From assembly GCA_038314665.1 (NCBI GenBank), contig GCA_038314665.1_3677.1: DNA of 64,000 nucleotides; one strand, given 5' to 3'. A program made the position numbers and the translations under genes. This DNA is from a phage. Positions 43,587 through 54,848 of the stretch are shown here, piece after piece (position 1 is the first letter of the stretch; each line of letters opens with the position of its first letter). The notes under the pieces were generated by a model. That model had not been told where the DNA came from, did no database searches, and saw only the letters and a program-made list of their open reading frames with translations.

Positions 43587-43880
43587 TCAAGACTTTTTAG
43601 TCTTTCTTGGAGAGCTTTTTGTTGATCTTTTTCTTTTGTGGTAAATTCCAAGTGCAGCATTTTCTTGGGCACACGTTTTAACGGTTTTTAGATCAGAGCT
43701 TTCAGCTTTAGGTAGATTAAGCTCCCACCAACCCAACCAGTAAAGCTCTGATTCCGACAGCTGCTCAGATTCAGACTTCCGATACAAGGCTTGCATACCT
43801 CTGATGATATCGTCCAAAGGTGTATCGAATACAAAAGCTGTCTTATCAAATTTCTCTTTTACAGGTTTCTTAGCCATCAA
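43587..43880 (-). CDS. hypothetical protein with basic C-terminal tail (97 aa)
   Basis: ORF only. Confidence 0.45.
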   Translation of the reverse strand: MMAKKPVKEKFDKTAFVFDTPLDDIIRGMQALYRKSESEQLSESELYWLGWWELNLPKAESSDLKTVKTCAQENAALGIYHKRKRSTKSSPRKTKKS

Positions 43881-44334
43881 GGTAACCCTCTATCCACGAA
43901 AAGTCAGTCTTCCATTCTGGGACTTTACTAAGCTCACGCCACTCTGCAAAGCAGTCTCGGTAATACGCCTCTGCCATACCCTTGGTGATCTTATTCACCT
44001 TAGCCAACTGATTAACTGCCTGAGCATACTTTCCACGGATATTTGCTAACCCAGGATGCACCGATGTGTGACAATCTGGGCACAACGCTATCAGTCCGAC
44101 AAGCCGGATCACTCCCTCTTCGAAAGTGTAAAGTTCATGACACTCCACCGGATGTTTGCTGCCTTTACCTCCGCACACCTCACAAGTGTAGTTGGCTTCT
44201 CTGTAGCACTTCTTACGGATCTTATCCCACTCACTCTTCTTCACAGCGTTTCGTAGGTTATTATACCAAGCGGTTTCTGGGATCAGTTGCACAATAAGCC
44301 TGCGTTCAGACTTCATTAAACGTCCGTCTTCCAC
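43870..44334 (-). CDS. putative HNH-like zinc-finger nuclease (154 aa)
   Basis: CEVCGG...HPVECHE...LCPDCHTSVH. Confidence 0.4.
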   Translation of the reverse strand: MEDGRLMKSERRLIVQLIPETAWYNNLRNAVKKSEWDKIRKKCYREANYTCEVCGGKGSKHPVECHELYTFEEGVIRLVGLIALCPDCHTSVHPGLANIRGKYAQAVNQLAKVNKITKGMAEAYYRDCFAEWRELSKVPEWKTDFSWIEGYLDG

Positions 44335-44613: not shown

Positions 44614-45084
44614 TCAATCAAGGACAACACCGCCTGCCTTTTTAAACACCTCGATCAACTTCTCGATCTTCTGTTCATGCTGACCATATCCAGCACCAGG
44701 TAACGAAGCCCAGCGGGAACGGCATTTATGGATAGCCTCGTGGATACGCCCTTCGTCAATGTCGGAGAGAGCCTTGCACTCACGGATCAGTTGCAACGCA
44801 ATCTTGTCCTGACTGGCAGGGCCAAAATCTGGCAATCCTAACTGTTCCATGTAGTGTTTAGCAAACTTCTCCAAAACCTGGTAACGCCCAGCAGCGGATG
44901 AGGTAAGTTTAGCATTTAGCTTAACGTACACACCTGGATGCTTGCTGTAATCGCTAAACAGCTTGCCACCAACTATGACATCATAGCCCCGATCCTTGGT
45001 GGGTTGTCTACCATTATCTGTACCTTCTGAATATGCGATCATATCCAAGAAAGCTTTTTGTTGAACATTTTTATCAAGTTTCAT
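44614..45084 (-). CDS. endolysin, lambda R-type lytic transglycosylase (156 aa)
   Basis: QQKAFLDMIAYSEGTDNGRQPTKDRGYDVIVGG closely matches lambda R NQRKAFLDMLAWSEGTDNGRQKTRNHGYDVIVGG. Confidence 0.9.
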   Translation of the reverse strand: MKLDKNVQQKAFLDMIAYSEGTDNGRQPTKDRGYDVIVGGKLFSDYSKHPGVYVKLNAKLTSSAAGRYQVLEKFAKHYMEQLGLPDFGPASQDKIALQLIRECKALSDIDEGRIHEAIHKCRSRWASLPGAGYGQHEQKIEKLIEVFKKAGGVVLD

Positions 45085-45208: not shown

Positions 45209-46492
45209 TCATTCCAGAACCTCCCAAGTGTCTGGGTTAACATTTCGGACGCAGATACCGACAGGGAATTGGTAGTTGTTGTCTTCTGTCCTTGATTGAT
45301 ATTTGAAGGTGACAAACTTGCCGATCATTTCCTGCATCCTGTCATAGCTACGCTCCTCGTGCGTGCCTTTCATCTTCATTTTAACAATAACACCTTCCTT
45401 GTCAACACAGATAAGAACACCTTCGTCATTCTTATCTTTCTCAACGTCAATAACTTTCACCTCTGCGTCGTTGAACTTTTTCCATTTCAATGCTTCAGAT
45501 GTTCGCTGACCGTACTCGTATTTACCGCAGAAATTACGCATGATAGTACCTTCATATCCTTCGGACATGAATATACCAACAGAGTCTTCGCAATGATCAA
45601 CTGTGTACGCAAGCTCTGCGTCAACAACCTTGATATGATCAAGCATCAGAGTGGTAACGGTATCCTCTGCATCCATAAGATCCTTGCAGCGTCCAGACTC
45701 TGTTTCTGGATCCCACCACACCTTGTCGCTAGGAATATCAAAAATGTGATACTCCAGATCGTAGCTACAGTACCCACCGTAACGCAAATCATCACGAACA
45801 GGCTCAACATCGACAGGAATATCTACCTTGTTGAAGTTTTTATATGTTGATAAGCCTGCCTTAATTGCGGCATGACGGCGTTTTTTATCTGCCTCATAGT
45901 CTTTATCGATCTCGGCCTGAATCTCTTCTTGTGTGCGCCACCGTTTAGCAAGAGATACTATTTTCTGCAAAGGAAGACCATGAATGTATAGTTCCCCATC
46001 AAGTTGTTTAATCCCAGTGGTAGAATGGAAAGAACGAAGTTGCTCTAAAAGCTTTCCTTGAATAGGGTAGGACTTATTACCACGGGAAATAAATTTAGGC
46101 TCACCATTTTGGAAAACAACAAGCAGACGAAGGCCATCTAACTTACGCAAGATCCAGCAAGGTAATTTAAGTGCCTTGCCACGCTTCAGGTAGTCATGCA
46201 CCAGCATGGGTAAAAGGTCAACACCCTGCTCGCAATCTTCCATGTTTTCAACATACCCCAGACGGACTTGTTTTTCCCACTTACTGATCGCTTCCAGCTC
46301 GGCCTGTTGCTCAGCTGTAGTTTCATTGGCACGACCAACGTTCTTAGGTGTGCAGATCGTCTCTTTGTATTGCAGTTTACCATCAAGCTTGCCAAACTCT
46401 ACGATAACCTTATCACCATCCGTGAATACTTTCCACTGTTGGTAGCTGCCATCTTTATTCAGTGCGTACAGTGTTGTTTTGATCTGATGCAT
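45209..46492 (-). CDS. ATP-dependent DNA ligase (427 aa)
   Basis: nucleotidyltransferase motif I KLDGLR. Confidence 0.65.
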   Translation of the reverse strand: MHQIKTTLYALNKDGSYQQWKVFTDGDKVIVEFGKLDGKLQYKETICTPKNVGRANETTAEQQAELEAISKWEKQVRLGYVENMEDCEQGVDLLPMLVHDYLKRGKALKLPCWILRKLDGLRLLVVFQNGEPKFISRGNKSYPIQGKLLEQLRSFHSTTGIKQLDGELYIHGLPLQKIVSLAKRWRTQEEIQAEIDKDYEADKKRRHAAIKAGLSTYKNFNKVDIPVDVEPVRDDLRYGGYCSYDLEYHIFDIPSDKVWWDPETESGRCKDLMDAEDTVTTLMLDHIKVVDAELAYTVDHCEDSVGIFMSEGYEGTIMRNFCGKYEYGQRTSEALKWKKFNDAEVKVIDVEKDKNDEGVLICVDKEGVIVKMKMKGTHEERSYDRMQEMIGKFVTFKYQSRTEDNNYQFPVGICVRNVNPDTWEVLE

Positions 46493-46761
46493 TACTCGGC
46501 CTCTTCCTTAAAAATTTTAAACATCTCTTCTTTACTCATTACCAACCAGTCTCCCATAAAGTCAACTAGCCAATCTCCCTGGTACAAGACAAGGTTACCA
46601 AAAGGCTCGACAAGCTCACACATGCGACGAAGATCTCTGGTCCGAACAGGTGACGATGTAAACACACCTGTATCAATCCACCGTTGCAGATCAGATACTG
46701 ATGAAGAGCTTCCGTCAAACTGGTGGGCTTCTACAGGTTTAGCAAGATTAAATAACGGCAT
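46492..46761 (-). CDS. hypothetical protein (89 aa)
   Basis: coupled ORF. Confidence 0.45.
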   Translation of the reverse strand: MPLFNLAKPVEAHQFDGSSSSVSDLQRWIDTGVFTSSPVRTRDLRRMCELVEPFGNLVLYQGDWLVDFMGDWLVMSKEEMFKIFKEEAE

Positions 46762-47056
46762 TGCAGTCCTCCTTCTGTAGTAGGTCTTTTATAGGATAAA
46801 CAAGTAAGTGTGGATCGGAATAACGTATAGTCCTATTCTGCCACACTATGAACTTTATTACAACCAAATTTACAATATCTTTATCACCATGTAGCCCAAC
46901 ACACACATTTGTCCATATTTTGTGGTTGAAGATCTTGCTATCGATGTAGATTTTAGTGTCAAACTTATCTTCCATTCTACCAATAAGTTTGATCAGCTCC
47001 TTCATCTGGTCGCCAAACACAGCATCTTTTTCAAGATCTCTGGAATGCTTGTACAT
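46748..47056 (-). CDS. hypothetical protein (102 aa)
   Basis: ORF only. Confidence 0.45.
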   Translation of the reverse strand: MYKHSRDLEKDAVFGDQMKELIKLIGRMEDKFDTKIYIDSKIFNHKIWTNVCVGLHGDKDIVNLVVIKFIVWQNRTIRYSDPHLLVYPIKDLLQKEDCNAVI

Positions 47057-47118
47057 AACTAACTACCTCACTGCATACTTTCCATAATAAGTAAAGCCGG
47101 GTAATCCCGGCTATGTTG

Positions 47119-47832
47119 TTAAATATACTCTGTTACATCCTTGAAGCTCGAAGGCTTCATAATCTTACCTTTACTGTCAAGGAATATAATAACTTTATTG
47201 CCGTTGTAGAACTCCTCTTTAGCAACGAAACCTTCGTAGCGACCACCAAAACGACGCTCAAGATCTTTAATCTCCAACTCGATGAGTTGTTCAGCAGGCA
47301 TATCTGCACTGGCACCGTGTGAATGCCGTAGATGGTTGATCCGTGCAAACTTACTGTCATTAGATTTTAGAACCTTCCGCATCATCCCACACACATCCCC
47401 GCTAAGCTGGAACAGCAAAGCTGTTGACAACTCTGCTAAGCGGTAAGCTGACGCTCTTTGCTTGGATGTGTTTTTCGCAGCGATCAGTGTATCATAGAAC
47501 TCACCGATCTTGAACTTAAGACCTCGTGGATTATCAAACAGGTTTGACCACTTTTCGTGATTGTCATTAACAAGATAAGCTGCATAACTTGTGACAACGT
47601 GAAGATCGCAGGCCTCTTTTAGCAGGTGATCTCCACCATCACCTTTCTCCAGCTCTTCCAAAACCTCATTGAACTCTTCCTCAATGAAGCTAAGCTGTAA
47701 TTCGAATGGTGTGTATGATTTCTTCACTTTAGCTGCCACACGGTTCCAGTTTTCCACCCAGTTGGCAGACCAAAGGTAGTTTTCAGGCTGAGACAGTTTT
47801 TCCAGGTTGTCGATCAGTTTAGTATTTAGCAT
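47119..47832 (-). CDS. putative MazG-like NTP pyrophosphohydrolase (237 aa)
   Basis: EExxE-type helix FIEEEFNEVLEELEKGD; weak assignment. Confidence 0.4.
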   Translation of the reverse strand: MLNTKLIDNLEKLSQPENYLWSANWVENWNRVAAKVKKSYTPFELQLSFIEEEFNEVLEELEKGDGGDHLLKEACDLHVVTSYAAYLVNDNHEKWSNLFDNPRGLKFKIGEFYDTLIAAKNTSKQRASAYRLAELSTALLFQLSGDVCGMMRKVLKSNDSKFARINHLRHSHGASADMPAEQLIELEIKDLERRFGGRYEGFVAKEEFYNGNKVIIFLDSKGKIMKPSSFKDVTEYI

Positions 47833-47846
47833 TAAAAGGTCACCTC

Positions 47847-48608
47847 TTACAGTTCCATAAAGTTTTCTACAGTTTCAATAAATTCTTTATCAGAGAAAGC
47901 GTCAACAGCACCGTTAAACCATACAGGGATCCCGCGATCCTCATATTGATAAAGGTCGCTACGTGAAATGCCACTTCCATCTGCACTCTGCGAATCATAC
48001 TTGTTTACAATCAGCAGTTTTGTGCCTTTACAAGTAGCAGGAAACAATTCCCAGTTAAAATTAATAACTGTGTTAGAACAACCTACCAGGATCACCATAT
48101 CATTGCTGGTAAGAGATGTCAACAGGTCATACATGTCTGTATACTTAGGAGCAACCTCACCGAAGAACACTACATTGGGCTTAACCCAGGTATACTTGCC
48201 TGTATCTACCTCAGTGTATCCGATATTTTTAATTACATCATTACCTTCAGCATCTTCGTAGGTGATTTCAGGCAAATACCCGTGGACATGTAAAATATCT
48301 TCATGTTTTACACCAGCACGCTCCAGCAAATCATCTACATTGGTAGTAAGGTTGATTACACGACCAGACCAGCGGGAATACCACTCAGCGATCCGAAGAT
48401 GTGCAAGGTTAGGATCAACACTGCCAAGAGCTACACGACGTGCATTGTAAAAGTCATGCACCTTATAGTAGTTCTTGGCAAAGGTGTGGATATTGCACAC
48501 CTCATCGATGCTGAAATTCTCCCACATTGCAGTGCTACCAGATCGGAAAGTGGGAATACCAGATTCAGCGCTCAAACCAGCACCGGAGATAATAATCAGT
48601 CGTCGCAT
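47847..48608 (-). CDS. Sir2-family NAD-dependent deacylase / ADP-ribosyltransferase-like protein (253 aa)
   Basis: Sir2 motif ISGAGLSAESGIPTFRS. Confidence 0.65.
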   Translation of the reverse strand: MRRLIIISGAGLSAESGIPTFRSGSTAMWENFSIDEVCNIHTFAKNYYKVHDFYNARRVALGSVDPNLAHLRIAEWYSRWSGRVINLTTNVDDLLERAGVKHEDILHVHGYLPEITYEDAEGNDVIKNIGYTEVDTGKYTWVKPNVVFFGEVAPKYTDMYDLLTSLTSNDMVILVGCSNTVINFNWELFPATCKGTKLLIVNKYDSQSADGSGISRSDLYQYEDRGIPVWFNGAVDAFSDKEFIETVENFMEL

Positions 48609-48616
48609 AAGTGTCC

Positions 48617-48967
48617 TCAGTAGATGTTTTGTTTAATCTCTATTCCAAACTTCTTGAATGAGTCAGCAGCAAGCATAAATTTACGAGCTGCCGATGGATT
48701 AGAAGTATGCACGAAAATAATCACGTTGTCAATAAGTGGTGGCTTTCCGAATACAAGTTTCTCCTCTAGCGCAGAGAAGCAGTCGTACCCTTCAAACACT
48801 TCACCTAGATCATTGTCAAAATACCACTCAGATACGCGTCTGTAGAGCTTTCTCTTATCATTAAGAAAATCCATAAACTCAGAAGAATTCTTTAGCCACA
48901 GAGCGTCTGGGAGTCCATAATCTGACGGATCTCTAAAATCATCAAGCCACACAATCCACTTCTTCAT
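48617..48967 (-). CDS. hypothetical protein (116 aa)
   Basis: coupled ORF. Confidence 0.45.
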   Translation of the reverse strand: MKKWIVWLDDFRDPSDYGLPDALWLKNSSEFMDFLNDKRKLYRRVSEWYFDNDLGEVFEGYDCFSALEEKLVFGKPPLIDNVIIFVHTSNPSAARKFMLAADSFKKFGIEIKQNIY

Positions 48968-49899
48968 TGCATATAGTCCTCGTTGTGGAAATAGTAGTCC
49001 AGTATCTCACGACGCTCCTGCTCTAATAAGCAATTCCACACATCTTCTGTATAGTTGCTACGAATAAATTTTACCATACCGTAAAACTCTTCGTCAACAC
49101 GTTTAAAGATATCATCATCCCAAATCTTCCAAGCTTTACCCCTCATTACGGCCTTCCGTGCCAGATAGTATGGAGACTTGATCTTCAGCTGCAGATCATA
49201 AGGGTAGTAAGGCTTACGAATCATATACCCTTCACCTCTTGTTTCTGCAGCTAATTCTTTTGCATAGCTGAACGGAATTTCACGCACAGTGTGAGGACGT
49301 TTTGCACCAAGGTATTTGGCAATCCCATCTAAAGCTGCTTCTGGTAGCATTATTCCAGAATCATTATATCTGCAACCTATCAAATATGCGCCATGATCTT
49401 CCTGAACAATATGCGGATCTGAAGGGTGGCAAATTTCAAACATGAATGTCATGTTTTCATTGCCCATAACCTTCTTGATAAGATCTAAATTACCACATTG
49501 CTCCCTGATGGTTTCTTTTGCGAGGTTACAATATGGGGAATCAAGAGACCCGGTTGTTGAGAACAACAGTTCACCTTTATGAGATGATACCACACCGAGG
49601 AATCCGTTCTTTTTCTCTACCGCAGTAACAAGTTTACTGTCCGGTAGGTTGGTGGAGTTTTCTCCTAAGTTGAATACTTTTGTGAAAGGCCATGCCACAA
49701 CATTCCCCTCATTGCCAACAACAATACCTCGGCACTCCAGTAAACGCGGAGACAAATGCCACAGATTGTTGTAGAATACTTTTCTGGCATATTTATAGAT
49801 CTTTAATCCAAGATCTGGATAATACCGACTGGTTACAAGACCTTTGTCTACTAGGTCATCTGCATTAAAATACTTCATCATACGTTCCTCATTTGTCAT
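48964..49899 (-). CDS. RNA ligase, T4 Rnl1-like (311 aa)
   Basis: LLECRGIVV and EKKNGFLGVV resemble T4 RnlA ALECRGIMF and the KEDGSL adenylation motif. Confidence 0.6.
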   Translation of the reverse strand: MTNEERMMKYFNADDLVDKGLVTSRYYPDLGLKIYKYARKVFYNNLWHLSPRLLECRGIVVGNEGNVVAWPFTKVFNLGENSTNLPDSKLVTAVEKKNGFLGVVSSHKGELLFSTTGSLDSPYCNLAKETIREQCGNLDLIKKVMGNENMTFMFEICHPSDPHIVQEDHGAYLIGCRYNDSGIMLPEAALDGIAKYLGAKRPHTVREIPFSYAKELAAETRGEGYMIRKPYYPYDLQLKIKSPYYLARKAVMRGKAWKIWDDDIFKRVDEEFYGMVKFIRSNYTEDVWNCLLEQERREILDYYFHNEDYMQ

Positions 49900-49999: not shown

Positions 50000-50410
50000 A
50001 TGTCTAAAATGCTATATATCGTGCGTGGTCTGCCAGGGTCTGGCAAATCAACACTGGCAAATGCGCTATCTTTAGAAGGCCTGTATCCACATTTTGAGAA
50101 CGACATGTTCTGGTATGACGATGACGGCAATTACAACTGGGATGCAAGTAAAGTAACACTCGCAGCAAAATGGTGCAAAGATAACGTAGAAGATATGATG
50201 CGTATGGGATACGACCGTATCGTGGTAAGTAATACGTTTACAAAAGAAAAACATGTGCAGGAATATGTTGACATGGCAATCAGTCATGGGTATAGTTATA
50301 CCGTGATCGTGGTTGAAAACCGCCACGGTAATAAAAGCATTCATGATGTTCCAGACAAGATTGTGGATCGTATGGAACGCCAGCTTAAAAACTGCATTAA
50401 ACTTAAATGA
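50000..50410 (+). CDS. polynucleotide 5'-kinase domain protein (136 aa)
   Basis: start taken at the ATG with GGAGG RBS; P-loop GLPGSGKST as in the T4 Pnk kinase domain GCPGSGKST. Confidence 0.65.
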   Translation: MSKMLYIVRGLPGSGKSTLANALSLEGLYPHFENDMFWYDDDGNYNWDASKVTLAAKWCKDNVEDMMRMGYDRIVVSNTFTKEKHVQEYVDMAISHGYSYTVIVVENRHGNKSIHDVPDKIVDRMERQLKNCIKLK

Positions 50411-50417
50411 GGAATGT

Positions 50418-50972
50418 ATGAAATACTTTGTAACAAGCGATACGCACTTTCTCCACCAGCGGGTCATGGAGTTTGAGTCATGTCAAAAACACAGATCTCA
50501 GTATGATCACAATCTTGATAGTATGAATGCTGGAATCATCACCGAGTGGAACTCTGTTGTGTCACCTGCAGACACTGTGTTCCACCTGGGAGATATTGCG
50601 TGCACTAATGATAAGAATATCAACAACTTACTTCCAGATATTCTAAATATGTTGAACGGACATATTATTCTTGTTCGTGGCAACCATGACACAAGAACGA
50701 CTGTCAGAATTATGAAAGAGTTCGGTCATGAGGTTGTAGATTATTACGAGCTTCGCCACAACAAGAATTTGATCTGTATGAGCCATTACCAGTTTGCAAA
50801 GTGGAACAGAAAGCCTCACGGATCAGTCCAACTGTTCGGTCATGCTCACGGAACCACACAACAGTTGTTTGGCAGGCAGCTTGATGTCGGTTGGGATGTG
50901 TGGGGGAGACTCTTACCATTAGAAGAGGCATACCGTATTGCAATGAGTTTTGATATTGACAGCAGGGAGTAA
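50418..50972 (+). CDS. calcineurin-like metallophosphoesterase (184 aa)
   Basis: start taken at the ATG after AGGAA; DxH...GD...GNHD metallophosphatase motifs. Confidence 0.6.
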   Translation: MKYFVTSDTHFLHQRVMEFESCQKHRSQYDHNLDSMNAGIITEWNSVVSPADTVFHLGDIACTNDKNINNLLPDILNMLNGHIILVRGNHDTRTTVRIMKEFGHEVVDYYELRHNKNLICMSHYQFAKWNRKPHGSVQLFGHAHGTTQQLFGRQLDVGWDVWGRLLPLEEAYRIAMSFDIDSRE

Positions 50973-53908: not shown

Positions 53909-53983
53909 GCCCTGTTAGCTTAGTGGATAAAGCAGCGGCCTTCTAAGCCGTTGACACTGGTTCGAGTCCAGTACGGGGTGCCA
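53909..53983 (+). tRNA. tRNA-Arg (anticodon TCT)
   Basis: manual cloverleaf: acceptor GCCCTGT/ACGGGGT, anticodon loop CTTCTAA, T-loop TTCGAGT, encoded CCA. Confidence 0.75.
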
Positions 53984-54113
53984 AGTTCTTTTTAATGTAG
54001 CTTACTTTAGCAGAGTAAATCTTCGGCAAGTGGCGGTAACCACTTTACCGATACCTCATAGTTAGTGGTGAGAACACTAGCTATTTTAAAAAGAATTTAA
54101 ATATTAGTATTTA

Positions 54114-54201
54114 GGTGAGTTAATTCCGTAGGGGTAGCGGGGCAGACTGTAAATCTGTTATCATTGCGATTCGGGTGGTTCGACTCCATCACTCACCACC
54201 A
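54114..54201 (+). tRNA. tRNA-Tyr (anticodon GTA)
   Basis: acceptor GGTGAGT/ACTCACC, anticodon loop CTGTAAA, long variable arm, CCA. Confidence 0.8.
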
Positions 54202-54315
54202 AATTTATATTTTTAAATGCATAAATCATACAGATAATGGCATTGATATTTATCGTCGTTTATACTAGTCACTAACTGCTCGAAAATCAGTGTCATTATC
54301 AGTATAATTTATAAA

Positions 54316-54406
54316 GGAGGGTAGGGAGCAATGGTGCTCAAGCGGTCTTGAAAACCGTCCCATTGAGGATGACTCGATGATGGTTCGATTCCATTACTCT
54401 CCGCCA
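54316..54406 (+). tRNA. tRNA-Ser (anticodon TGA)
   Basis: acceptor GGAGGGT/ACTCTCC, anticodon loop CTTGAAA, long variable arm, CCA. Confidence 0.75.
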
Positions 54407-54504
54407 CATTGTTGACCTTGTAATTAAGCGAAAGCCGGAAGCAGAACCGGATTATCAAATGTTACAGTCGTCATCGCCGACTAGCAACATGGTCAACATA
54501 CTGA

Positions 54505-54603
54505 GCTAGGTAAGCCCTTTGGCAAGGGCGAGGATTTTTAATCCTGAAAATAGACGAGGTAGTCGTTGAATACATAGGTGGTTCGATTCCACCGCCTAGC
54601 ACC
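54505..54603 (+). tRNA. atypical tRNA-like gene (99 nt), anticodon possibly TTT
   Basis: acceptor GCTAGGT/GCCTAGC and T-arm GGTGG-TTCGATT-CCACC are clear; loop TTTTTAA on a short stem; about 30 nt between anticodon arm and T-arm. Confidence 0.4.
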
Positions 54604-54608
54604 TTTTT

Positions 54609-54684
54609 GCTGATGTAGCACAATTGGCAGTGCAATTGATTTGTAATCAATAGGTTGCAGGTTCAAGTCCTGCCATCAGCACCA
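54609..54684 (+). tRNA. tRNA-Thr (anticodon TGT)
   Basis: acceptor GCTGATG/CATCAGC, anticodon loop TTTGTAA, T-loop TTCAAGT, CCA. Confidence 0.8.
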
Positions 54685-54685
54685 A

Positions 54686-54760
54686 GGCCCTGTAGCTGGA
54701 AGGTTCAAGCAAGCGACTCATAATCGCCAGACGGTGGTTCAATTCCACCCAGGGCCACCA
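54686..54760 (+). tRNA. tRNA-Met (anticodon CAT; elongator Met or Ile2 type)
   Basis: acceptor GGCCCTG/CAGGGCC, anticodon loop CTCATAA, CCA. Confidence 0.7.
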
Positions 54761-54771
54761 AATGGTAAATA

Positions 54772-54848
54772 CTCCGCGTAGCTCAGCTTGGTAGAGCGCC
54801 TGATTTGGGATCAGGAGGTCGAGTGTTCGAATCACTCCGTGGAGACCA
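54772..54848 (+). tRNA. tRNA-Pro (anticodon TGG)
   Basis: acceptor CTCCGCG/CGTGGAG with C1-G72, anticodon loop TTTGGGA, T-loop TTCGAAT, CCA. Confidence 0.8.

Follow-up and report, generated by a model that had tools for sequence, protein, structure and literature searches.

The window analysed here is a stretch of 64,000 nucleotides of DNA. With Escherichia phage LL12, a member of the genus Vequintavirus, the region shares 98.7% identity; this bears out the original prediction that the genes lie in a phage and places the window in that genus as rV5-like. A Sir2-family protein of 253 aa is encoded on the minus strand at 47847..48608, precisely where it had been predicted. The adjoining gene that had been read as MazG-like is also there, 14 nt downstream on the same strand (47119..47832), and codes for a protein of 237 aa of the all-alpha NTP pyrophosphohydrolase superfamily (MazG/HisE/dimeric-dUTPase; "MazG-like" in the following). 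The pair of a Sir2 protein and a MazG-type pyrophosphatase in an rV5-like E. coli phage is real and confirmed. It is already widely annotated, with this gene carrying a Sir2 annotation in over 100 genomes, so that as a discovery it is ordinary, and its function has been predicted only.

Two further genes precede the pair on the minus strand. The stop codon of a cREC (cyclic-phosphate processing receiver) protein (116 aa, 48617..48967; Pfam cREC_REC, E = 1.2e-13, 51.9 bits, cut-off 27) lies 8 nt upstream of the Sir2 start, and the gene of a T4 Rnl1-type RNA ligase (311 aa, 48964..49899; Pfam RNA_lig_T4_1, 9.3e-15; PHROG 562, 1.2e-65) overlaps the cREC start by 4 nt. Given this overlap and the spacers of 8 nt and 14 nt that follow it, the layout of Rnl1, cREC, Sir2 and the MazG-like gene is operon-like, and the four genes are apparently co-transcribed. 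Seven nucleotides past the MazG-like stop codon there is a GC-rich hairpin on the minus strand (AGCCGGG-ATTA-CCCGGCT, 47095..47112), a candidate intrinsic terminator that may close this unit. The curators of the phage Murica record annotated a terminator at the equivalent position; terminator-like sites are no more numerous in the region than chance would give.

Transcribed divergently, on the plus strand, are a P-loop kinase and a calcineurin-like metallophosphoesterase. The kinase (50000..50410) is polynucleotide-kinase-like (Pfam AAA_33, 4.6e-10; PHROG 2071/505 "polynucleotide kinase", which is also its name in the BASEL record), and its translation probably begins at the ATG at 50000, which has GGAGG in front of it. 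The metallophosphoesterase (50418..50972; Pfam Metallophos_2, 1.7e-6, and Metallophos; PHROG 547, 8e-53) probably starts at the ATG at 50418 (MKYFVTSDTHF), with gene limits as in related records. An RNA ligase, a 5'-kinase, a phosphoesterase and cREC, the components of a heal-and-seal module, are thus all found within 3.9 kb.

On the other side of the pair, an ATP-dependent DNA ligase (45209..46492, minus strand; Pfam DNA_ligase_A_M and OB_2; PHROG 114) accompanies both the module and the MazG-like gene as a conserved neighbour in every lineage that we examined. Between it and the MazG-like gene are two small conserved minus-strand ORFs with no assigned function (46748..47056, phrog_7684; 46492..46761, phrog_14585), which are found together with the module at 10-12 IMG/VR loci. 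A cluster of phage tRNA genes found with ARAGORN and Rfam (53909..54848, plus strand) lies about 3 kb from the kinase and phosphoesterase genes and contains an atypical tRNA-like gene of 97-99 nt at 54505-54601.

The gene cluster around the phage Sir2 is already known from the literature. Iyer, Burroughs, Anantharaman and Aravind (Viruses 2022, section 3.7.3; PMC9503650) described the same neighbourhood in Escherichia phage V5 and Proteus phage Mydo and read it as a predicted NAD-dependent RNA repair system of type 2, with the sirtuin acting like Tpt1/KptA. Apart from this computational prediction of 2022 we found no work on phage sirtuins in the literature, and none that was experimental. What we add is the status of the sirtuin at the level of residues (zinc ligands lost, YxxR kept, a Q-to-T change) together with its CobB-like fold, the dimeric-dUTPase-like fold of the MazG-like protein, the candidate terminator bounding the unit, and the finding that the direct adjacency of Sir2 and MazG is specific to one genus.

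Sequence and fold of the two proteins

The Sir2 protein begins with MRRLIIISGAGLSAESGIPTFRS, so that the NAD-binding motif quoted in the original prediction corresponds to residues 9-23. That prediction depended on a Sir2 profile match and on the catalytic His and Asn, and both were found. Pfam SIR2 (PF02146) matches with E = 6.9e-28 (98.2 bits, cut-off 24) over profile positions 1-178 of 180, that is, over the whole catalytic core of the superfamily, and PHROG 2162 "Sir2" matches with E = 1.5e-108. Bas49 EmilHeitz, a Vequintavirus of the BASEL collection, has a protein that is 99.6% identical. H109 (in HVHG) and N90 (in TTNVD) are invariant in 51 diverse homologs with 45-93% identity, as are GAGxS, D92 and FGE. 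The NAD loop (G9AGLS13...G17IPTFR22, with G9-A-G-x-S13 and F21-R22 as its key residues) is invariant or nearly so in the same set. The other key residues are Y54/R57 (YxxR), T88-T89-N90-V91-D92, H109-G110, F148-F149-G150-E151 and G176-C-S178.

Two sets of observations place the protein relative to known deacylases. The YxxR motif of class III sirtuins is kept (F53, Y54, R57, R58; invariant in the 51 homologs), and in the alignment the stretch FYNARR is identical in CobB. In the comparisons of sequence and of structure alike, CobB and SIRT5 come out on top, which agrees with class III: the best sequence match in the PDB is E. coli CobB (1s5p, E = 3e-21), and a Foldseek search with the AF2 model (pLDDT 89.8) has CobB 1s5p (TM 0.85), Af1 and SIRT5 as best matches with E of about 1e-18. 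The 50 best Foldseek matches listed are all sirtuins. On the other hand, the Cys4 zinc-binding small domain of canonical deacylases (classes I-IV and U) is lacking. Residues 111-142, between HG and FGE, include neither Cys nor His, and the four zinc cysteines of CobB align with non-Cys residues or with gaps. Among 91 homologs scored, the zinc segment contains no Cys in 64 and a single one in 25. Furthermore, the Gln of TQNID is replaced by Thr (TTNVD) in 118 of 120 homologs. The NCBIfam CobB models NF001753 and NF040867 give 122.6 bits (cut-off 243) and 104 bits (cut-off 320), and since these scores are far under the cut-offs, the phage sirtuin is not a CobB ortholog. Judging from its residues, we regard the 253-aa protein as a catalytically competent, zinc-less sirtuin that is derived from the CobB/SIRT5 type (class III). 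It belongs to a phage-specific clade, which is found in about 1,000 phage records (some 2% of the collection) and is acidic (median pI 5.1, range 4.6-6.05, comparing the overall pI).

The MazG-like protein carries the EExxE(12-28)ExxD metal-binding signature of its superfamily on a four-helix core. With Pfam MazG/PRA-PH the copy in the window reaches 13.8 bits (E = 0.081; gathering score 21.3), and its orthologs in phAPEC8 (28.2 bits) and Mydo (25.8 bits) are above the threshold. Its homologs match Pfam PRA-PH and MazG, and all 17 of the 17 close ones match PRA-PH at E<=1. We were not able to find a significant match to a solved structure with phmmer or with two profile searches (best PRA-PH 1yvw, E = 0.11). 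By structural comparison the closest folds are dimeric dUTPases; Pfam dUTPase_2 is absent among the matches listed at E<=1, and a search for a canonical trimeric dUTPase, run without a positive control, gave no match. The protein also has a conserved C-terminal extension (SNDSK ... GKIMKP) with a beta-hairpin.

Gene neighbourhood in other phages

Potentially, Sir2 and the MazG-like gene could form a conserved two-gene unit. We rejected this after comparing the phages Mydo, PVP-SE1, ZCKP1, phAPEC8, SE11 and EmilieFrey and 69 IMG/VR loci, which show that adjacency is a matter of genus. Only Vequintavirus has the two genes directly side by side. In Mydovirus and Seunavirus the DNA ligase and 2-5 small genes separate them, in Phapecoctavirus they are about 26 kb apart, and in T5-like phages no MazG-like homolog was detectable within 10 kb of Sir2. 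Where Sir2 sits elsewhere, the MazG-like gene stays with DNA ligase and exonuclease genes. The functional Sir2/MazG pair that had been proposed finds no support in these contexts; the conserved partners of Sir2 are enzymes that heal and seal RNA ends.

The RNA-repair module surrounds Sir2 also in Mydovirus and Seunavirus, and in 15 of the 69 IMG/VR loci, which correspond to 5-7 of 23 Sir2 lineage groups. At the remaining 54 loci we found no homolog of the window's RNA ligase, kinase, cREC, phosphoesterase, MazG-like protein or DNA ligase within 10 kb of Sir2. However, 28 of these 54 loci are T5-like and carry instead a HAD_SAK_2 "Swiss-army-knife RNA repair" phosphatase (1.2e-18) about 1 kb downstream of Sir2. 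An Rnl1 ligase (2.7e-28) is encoded two genes upstream of Sir2 on a 608-kb jumbo contig, and a CCA-adding enzyme with an HD domain directly downstream of it on a 285-kb contig. In Stephanstirmvirinae the module is intact and Sir2 lies about 26 kb off, among genes without assigned function; its conserved neighbours there have no Pfam matches and belong only to PHROGs of unknown function (8514, 9509). In the distant cREC contexts that we inspected, neither KptA nor another enzyme was seen in place of Sir2, and in one related phage the cREC/MazG-like module adjoins NAD-salvage genes.

The proximity of tRNA genes failed as independent support for a role of Sir2 in RNA metabolism, as it follows the ligase module and not Sir2. 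Within 10 kb of Sir2, tRNAs occur only at loci with the ligase module and at three others, and we treat them as neutral evidence.

Possible functions of the phage sirtuin

For phages, RNases that cleave tRNA or other RNA (PrrC, RloC, PARIS, retron- and HEPN-type nucleases) are a serious obstacle, and to our knowledge phage countermeasures other than T4 Pnkp/Rnl1 are poorly characterised. Our preferred reading, held tentatively and at somewhat less than even odds, follows Iyer et al. 2022: the sirtuin would be part of a heal-and-seal module for RNA (probably tRNA), with an NAD-dependent role in repair. The identity of its conserved partners, all of them enzymes that heal or seal RNA ends (Rnl1, cREC, the P-loop kinase and the metallophosphoesterase), points to RNA repair (PMC9503650), and the RNA-end-processing neighbours of Sir2 in T5-like and jumbo phages support it independently.

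The module would consist of two arms, Rnl1-cREC-Sir2-MazG-like on the minus strand and the divergent kinase and metallophosphoesterase. We infer every substrate and the order of the steps in the following scheme. A host anticodon nuclease or another metal-independent RNase would cut RNA and leave a 2',3'-cyclic phosphate. The cyclic end would be opened by cREC and/or the phosphoesterase, the 5'-OH phosphorylated by the polynucleotide-kinase-like protein and the break sealed by Rnl1. The sirtuin, using NAD+, would then remove the residual 2'-phosphate in the manner of Tpt1/KptA, with nicotinamide and ADP-ribose 1'',2''-cyclic phosphate as products. The chemistry of sirtuins is compatible with such a reaction, in which an oxygen nucleophile of the substrate would attack C1' of the nicotinamide ribose and the His-activated ribose 2'-OH would next attack the adduct. 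The MazG-like protein might degrade a by-product derived from ADP-ribose or, at least as likely, be a DNA-ligase-linked house-cleaning enzyme of the dUTPase/dCTPase type. In its most specific form, in which a phage-recruited, CobB-derived, zinc-less sirtuin strips the 2'-phosphate from repaired tRNA as a non-homologous replacement of Tpt1/KptA while cREC and the MazG-like protein clear the by-product, the scheme appears doubtful.

Several observations count against RNA repair, and some of them favour the main alternative as well, that the sirtuin is a true NAD-dependent lysine deacylase (a deacetylase or desuccinylase like CobB and SIRT5) acting on host or phage proteins. The low pI of the Sir2 clade is not what one would usually expect of an enzyme gripping RNA and resembles that of the CobB core. 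The Stephanstirmvirinae, in which Sir2 stands apart from an intact module, also speak against RNA repair. The 54 of 69 loci without module genes near Sir2, in a clade with so many phage records, do so too and speak for a deacylase, whose presence among the RNA-repair genes would then be a matter of regulation or of chance. The metallophosphoesterase of the module could fully remove the cyclic phosphate, as in the T4 and Clostridium Pnkp pathways, and would in that case leave no 2'-phosphate that needs removal. Indeed, the T4 Pnkp-Rnl1 pathway needs no such step, and we know of no sirtuin for which removal of a 2'-phosphate from RNA has been shown. Since the YxxR pair (Y54, R57), to which the acidic acyl group binds in SIRT5 and CobB, does not vary and the nearest relatives are lysine deacylases, a role as protein deacylase is equally parsimonious; the protein also keeps its FGE loop and catalytic His. 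In hosts with a heavy load of acyl-lysine, a deacylase might for instance preserve the activity of enzymes that depend on lysine, among them the neighbouring RNA and DNA ligases or host proteins of metabolism and translation. All the same, we consider a deacylase rather unlikely: the small domain, which helps to form the peptide groove, has lost its four zinc cysteines throughout the clade, the Gln of TQNID has become Thr, the CobB models score far too low, and RNA-end-processing genes recur beside Sir2 in four unrelated phage lineages.

The original prediction had linked the protein to Sir2 effectors of NAD-depleting defences and had suggested that it might, with the MazG-like protein, modulate NAD or alarmone pools or ADP-ribosylate host targets. 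The two identities, a catalytically intact Sir2-family protein and a member of the MazG superfamily, have stood; nothing that we tested supports the modulation of NAD or alarmones, the ADP-ribosylation of host targets or the link to defence. A PADLOC scan of the Sir2, MazG-like and cREC proteins (E<=0.01) gave no match to a defence model, and we rejected a defence-type Sir2 (Thoeris ThsA, DSR, SIR2-HerA, SIR2-pAgo), as the protein is of the CobB/SIRT5 type by sequence and fold, has a single domain and has RNA-repair neighbours. Defence-style NAD depletion by the phage sirtuin thus finds no support. Certain sirtuins do act as ADP-ribosyltransferases or NADases (PMC9503650), and one could think of such an enzyme in host takeover or counter-defence, paired with a MazG-like enzyme that degrades alarmones or signalling nucleotides. 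The residues that cleave off nicotinamide (N90, D92, H109) are intact, the lost zinc module and the Q-to-T change depart from canonical deacylases, in Vequintavirus the two genes lie side by side and seem to be co-transcribed, and there is the related phage with NAD-salvage genes beside its module. We nevertheless find it improbable, with a fold nearest to deacylases and not to ThsA, DSR or HerA-type Sir2, no PADLOC match, an adjacency confined to one genus, a neighbourhood without a macro-domain or another typical partner of sirtuin ADP-ribosylation systems, a phage genome without NAD-salvage genes to offset the consumption of NAD, and a MazG-like fold that points to dNTP house-cleaning.

Such house-cleaning may well be all that the MazG-like protein does, and we put this only slightly below an even chance: it would be functionally unrelated to Sir2 and serve as the phage's enzyme of the dimeric dUTPase/dCTPase type, which would provide the phage thymidylate synthase with dUMP and prevent uracil from entering DNA. 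The gene's proper company would then be the DNA ligase and exonuclease genes, and that it adjoins Sir2 in Vequintavirus would be an accident of local gene order.

The groups that carry the sirtuin clade include therapeutically used rV5-like, T5-like and phi92-like phages. If the protein is an RNA 2'-phosphotransferase, it would extend sirtuin chemistry to nucleic acids, as the first sirtuin with a demonstrated action on a phosphate of nucleic acid, and define a new route of repair; rV5-, T5- and phi92-like phages would gain a yeast- or plant-style tRNA repair against anticodon-nuclease defences. Should it instead be a deacylase, we would have a clear example of the acyl-lysine proteome being edited by a virulent phage.

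Comparison with known systems

With CobB and SIRT5 the phage sirtuin has the fold in common at about 27% identity (Foldseek E of about 1e-18, TM up to 0.85), and also the GAGxSxxSGIxTFR NAD loop, FYNARR (YxxR), the catalytic HG, xNxD and FGE. Unlike them it has no zinc-binding cysteines, reads TTNVD for TQNID, has a C-terminal extension of about 45 residues and is phage-specific, in an RNA-repair context. The defence Sir2 NADases (ThsA, DSR1/2, SIR2-HerA, SIR2-pAgo) share with it the Rossmann core, the Asn/His pair and the absence of a zinc ribbon. It differs from them as a single domain of 253 aa without SLOG, HerA, pAgo or the long DSR repeats, and in that its nearest structures are deacylases and it is encoded by a virulent phage, not in a host defence island. 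The MazG-like protein shares the helical bundle with the acidic EExxE...ExxD metal site with the MazG/HisE (PRA-PH)/dimeric dUTPase-dCTPase superfamily; the differences are that the copy in the window stays under the Pfam thresholds, has no significant sequence match among solved structures and carries the conserved C-terminal SNDSK...GKIMKP region.

The heal-and-seal systems with Tpt1/KptA (fungal and plant Trl1) and T4 Pnkp-Rnl1 use the same kinds of partners that we see here, namely an Rnl1-type ligase, a 5'-kinase and an end-healing enzyme. The role proposed for the sirtuin, in which a 2'-phosphate is removed at the expense of NAD+ and nicotinamide is set free, would be that of Tpt1/KptA by functional analogy only; SIR2 is the only Pfam family that the protein matches, and the Tpt1/KptA fold is unrelated to that of sirtuins, with no relationship in sequence or structure. 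The closest counterpart is the type 2 neighbourhood of PMC9503650, which has the same genes as the window (sirtuin, T4-like RNA ligase, cREC, kinase, MazG-superfamily pyrophosphatase and phosphoesterase), comes from the same phage lineage and is of the same kind.

The Sir2 and MazG-like proteins

The original prediction placed a Sir2-family protein next to a MazG-like pyrophosphohydrolase, and the interval is filled exactly by two adjacent minus-strand ORFs. One (47847..48608) encodes 253 aa with the N-terminus MRRLIIISGAGLSAESGIPTFRS; the other (47119..47832) encodes 237 aa and starts 14 nt past the end of the Sir2 ORF. The Sir2 identity is borne out by the Pfam SIR2 profile, which spans the entire catalytic core (E = 6.9e-28; 98 bits, the cut-off being 24), and PHROG 2162 "Sir2" matches as well (E = 1.5e-108). 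Over this region the identity to Escherichia phage LL12 is 98.7%, and among the 122 phage records that match, 121 exceed 90%; nearly all are rV5-like Vequintavirus, where the gene is labelled Sir2 or NAD-dependent deacetylase. Since the profile matches are strong and the gene is annotated in related phages, the Sir2 observation is correct, well above chance, and not new; the prediction of an RNA-repair system is also in the literature already.

Some database labels deserve a remark. The MazG-like gene is mislabelled "putative Sir2-like protein" in several genomes (LL12, naswa, nomo and others), and a 92-aa ORF labelled "Sir2" in the T5-like phage SE11 (L004:6221-6499) has the RNA-repair phosphatase HAD_SAK_2 as its domain match (E = 8.3e-6). 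Roughly 18-25 GenBank MG0656xx records named "Campylobacter phage" (host Campylobacter jejuni) are ~98% identical to rV5-like coliphages here; the host assignment is open to doubt, or contamination of the stocks may be the cause.

By sequence, the solved structures closest to the sirtuin are E. coli CobB (1s5p, E = 3e-21), archaeal Sir2-Af1 and human and zebrafish SIRT5. Aligned to CobB, it keeps the NAD loop, the FGE loop and the xNxD motif (N90, D92), and both the catalytic HG (H109) and the Asn N90 are present. The stretch FYNARR, identical in the two proteins, holds the class III YxxR pair (Y54, R57). The Gln of TQNID in CobB is replaced by Thr (TTNVD), and all four CobB zinc cysteines lie opposite non-cysteine residues or gaps. 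TTN is found in 118 of 120 retrieved homologs, and the zinc segment of the 91 sequences scored has no Cys in 64 cases and one in 25. Catalytic and YxxR residues are invariant in a 51-sequence alignment (52-93% identity to the window protein). A confident AlphaFold model from this alignment (pLDDT 89.8, pTM 0.88) has CobB as its nearest Foldseek match (E ~1e-18, TM up to 0.85, ~27% identity), followed by Af1 and SIRT5. The protein scores far beneath the NCBIfam cut-offs for CobB orthologs. These comparisons make it a phage-specific, zinc-less offshoot of the CobB/SIRT5 type whose nicotinamide-cleaving machinery is intact. Nothing supports the suggested relationship to NAD-depleting defence Sir2 proteins: no PADLOC defence model matches, and the nearest folds are CobB, Af1 and SIRT5.

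For the MazG-like protein, Pfam gave nothing above threshold with the window copy (PRA-PH, E = 0.081), and no solved structure matched by sequence. The label holds at superfamily level through PHROG 671 "nucleotide pyrophosphohydrolase" (1.9e-21), Pfam matches of close homologs (PRA-PH in 17/17, MazG in 15/17) and a conserved acidic signature, EExxE(x16)ExxD, in which E52, E53, E56 and D76 do not vary even in homologs of only 26% identity. The phAPEC8 and Mydo orthologs score above the PRA-PH gathering threshold. The closest architecture is the dimeric dUTPase branch; an extra C-terminal region is strongly conserved (SNDSK...GKIMKP).

Gene neighbourhood and its conservation

The minus-strand order begins with an Rnl1-type RNA ligase (48964..49899), which overlaps by 4 nt a cREC "cyclic-phosphate processing receiver" protein (48617..48967); Sir2 follows after 8 nt, and the MazG-like gene after the 14-nt spacer. 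A GC-rich hairpin (47112-47095, minus strand) lies 7 nt past the MazG-like stop codon; it is a consensus match only, terminator-like sites of the region being no commoner than in shuffled sequence, but the phage Murica record has a curator-annotated terminator at the equivalent place. Two small conserved ORFs and an ATP-dependent DNA ligase come next, and just past these, on the same strand, an HNH endonuclease-like ORF (43870-44334) and an endolysin (PHROG 90; 44614-45084). Related genomes carry several homing endonucleases, some inserted in DNA polymerase and NrdD genes. A P-loop AAA_33/polynucleotide-kinase-like gene (likely start 50000, GGAGG RBS) and a calcineurin-like metallophosphoesterase point away from the RNA ligase on the opposite strand, and the phage tRNA cluster lies ~3 kb beyond them.

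A plus-strand tRNA-like gene of 97-99 nt (54505-54601), to which ARAGORN could assign no anticodon, only just exceeds the Rfam tRNA gathering score (31 against 29 bits); it lies 3.5 kb away from the predicted RNA-repair module. By eye it has a UUU (Lys) anticodon loop followed by a ~30-nt insertion, and its EmilHeitz counterpart is annotated tRNA-Lys(AAA). PrrC-type anticodon nucleases classically target tRNA-Lys(UUU). Another tRNA (54114-54198, plus strand; Rfam 39 bits), missed by ARAGORN, seems to have the anticodon GUA (Tyr), which agrees with the tRNA-Tyr reported for rV5. The T5-like Proteus phage vB_PMC-PL1 (Demerecviridae; L083:4962-5309) carries a cREC homolog within its tRNA gene cluster, which fits a tRNA-related role of cREC.

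By tblastn, 1,012 phage records contain the Sir2 clade; the MazG-like protein occurs in 326 and cREC in 355, and the host breakdown of these last two is nearly identical. Outside the genus, the Vequintavirinae Mydo and PVP-SE1 have the order phosphoesterase, Rnl1, cREC, kinase, Sir2, DNA ligase, several small genes, MazG-like. Phapecoctavirus keeps Rnl1, kinase, DNA ligase, MazG-like and RdgC together, with Sir2 ~26 kb off. The immediate adjacency of Sir2 and the MazG-like gene is a local Vequintavirus feature.

We sampled 69 Sir2-clade loci from IMG/VR with flanks of up to 10 kb on each side (some contigs being shorter); at 70% identity they cluster into 23 lineage groups. Sir2 is found together with the ligase/kinase/phosphoesterase/MazG-like set in 15 of these loci, representing 5-7 groups. 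In 28 T5-like loci, a phosphatase matching HAD_SAK_2 ("Swiss-army-knife RNA repair", 1.2e-18) lies ~1 kb downstream of Sir2. An Rnl1 ligase lies two genes upstream in a 608-kb jumbo contig (L067:7576-9720), and a CCA-adding enzyme with an HD domain directly downstream in a 285-kb jumbo-phage contig (L072:10718-11941). Many lineages have Sir2 without any repair gene nearby, its Stephanstirmvirinae neighbours are genes of unknown function, and tRNA genes within 10 kb go with the ligase module, not with Sir2. The association of the sirtuin clade with RNA-end processing recurs in several unrelated lineages and is real guilt-by-association evidence.

In the 608-kb contig an arginase-family protein also precedes the Sir2-clade gene, beside Rnl1. 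In Klebsiella phage phi1_175008 (L082:1-9600), a module of cREC, phosphoesterase, DNA ligase and MazG-like genes adjoins divergent NAD-salvage genes (nicotinamide phosphoribosyltransferase and ribose-phosphate pyrophosphokinase), a layout that hints at a tie to NAD metabolism in some Stephanstirmvirinae.

Possible functions

In sirtuin chemistry, a substrate oxygen attacks C1' of the nicotinamide ribose, and the adduct is in turn attacked by the ribose 2'-OH, activated by His. A phosphate oxygen acting as the nucleophile would make this formally the Tpt1 reaction, yielding ADP-ribose 1'',2''-cyclic phosphate. Known sirtuin mechanisms make such chemistry plausible. Iyer, Burroughs, Anantharaman and Aravind (Viruses 2022, PMC9503650, section 3.7.3) described this neighbourhood in Escherichia phage V5 and Proteus phage Mydo and proposed that this distinct viral sirtuin clade acts like KptA/Tpt1. 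The sirtuin would strip the 2'-phosphate left after a 2',3'-cyclic phosphate end opens; opening that end, or handling the ADP-ribose cyclic-phosphate product, would fall to the other enzymes. We found no experimental test of this proposal in the literature.

We rank the RNA-repair role first, tentatively. The analysis establishes the protein identities, residues, fold, gene layout and context, and from these we infer the substrates and the order of steps. The acidic pI of the clade (median 5.1) counts against it, as does the position of Sir2 away from repair genes in many lineages; the metallophosphoesterase could also make 2'-phosphate removal needless. A further point against it is the invariant YxxR pair with the overall likeness to CobB, which a lysine desuccinylase or deacetylase role, in our estimate somewhat less likely, would explain just as simply. 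The original reading as NADase, ADP-ribosyltransferase or alarmone control is improbable, and nothing testable here supports it.

The MazG-like protein is no less likely to have a housekeeping role than to be a partner of Sir2. Dimeric dUTPases are its nearest folds. A BASEL phage of 98% identity, whose genome is complete, encodes thymidylate synthase and two ribonucleotide reductases but has no annotated dUTPase and no NAD-salvage genes. The rV5 genome paper does not mention a dUTPase, and tblastn with an approximate E. coli Dut sequence, run without a positive control, gave no match. Where Sir2 sits elsewhere, the gene keeps company with DNA ligase and exonuclease genes. On the other hand, its phyletic distribution is that of cREC, and in Vequintavirus it sits inside the Rnl1-cREC-Sir2 unit.

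In summary, the pair of Sir2 and MazG-like genes is real and correctly identified, yet already annotated and placed in a predicted RNA-repair system; the remaining interest lies in the enzymology of the sirtuin clade, which occurs in ~2% of sequenced phages. Its proposed role would be the same as that of Tpt1/KptA, namely NAD-dependent removal of a 2'-phosphate.
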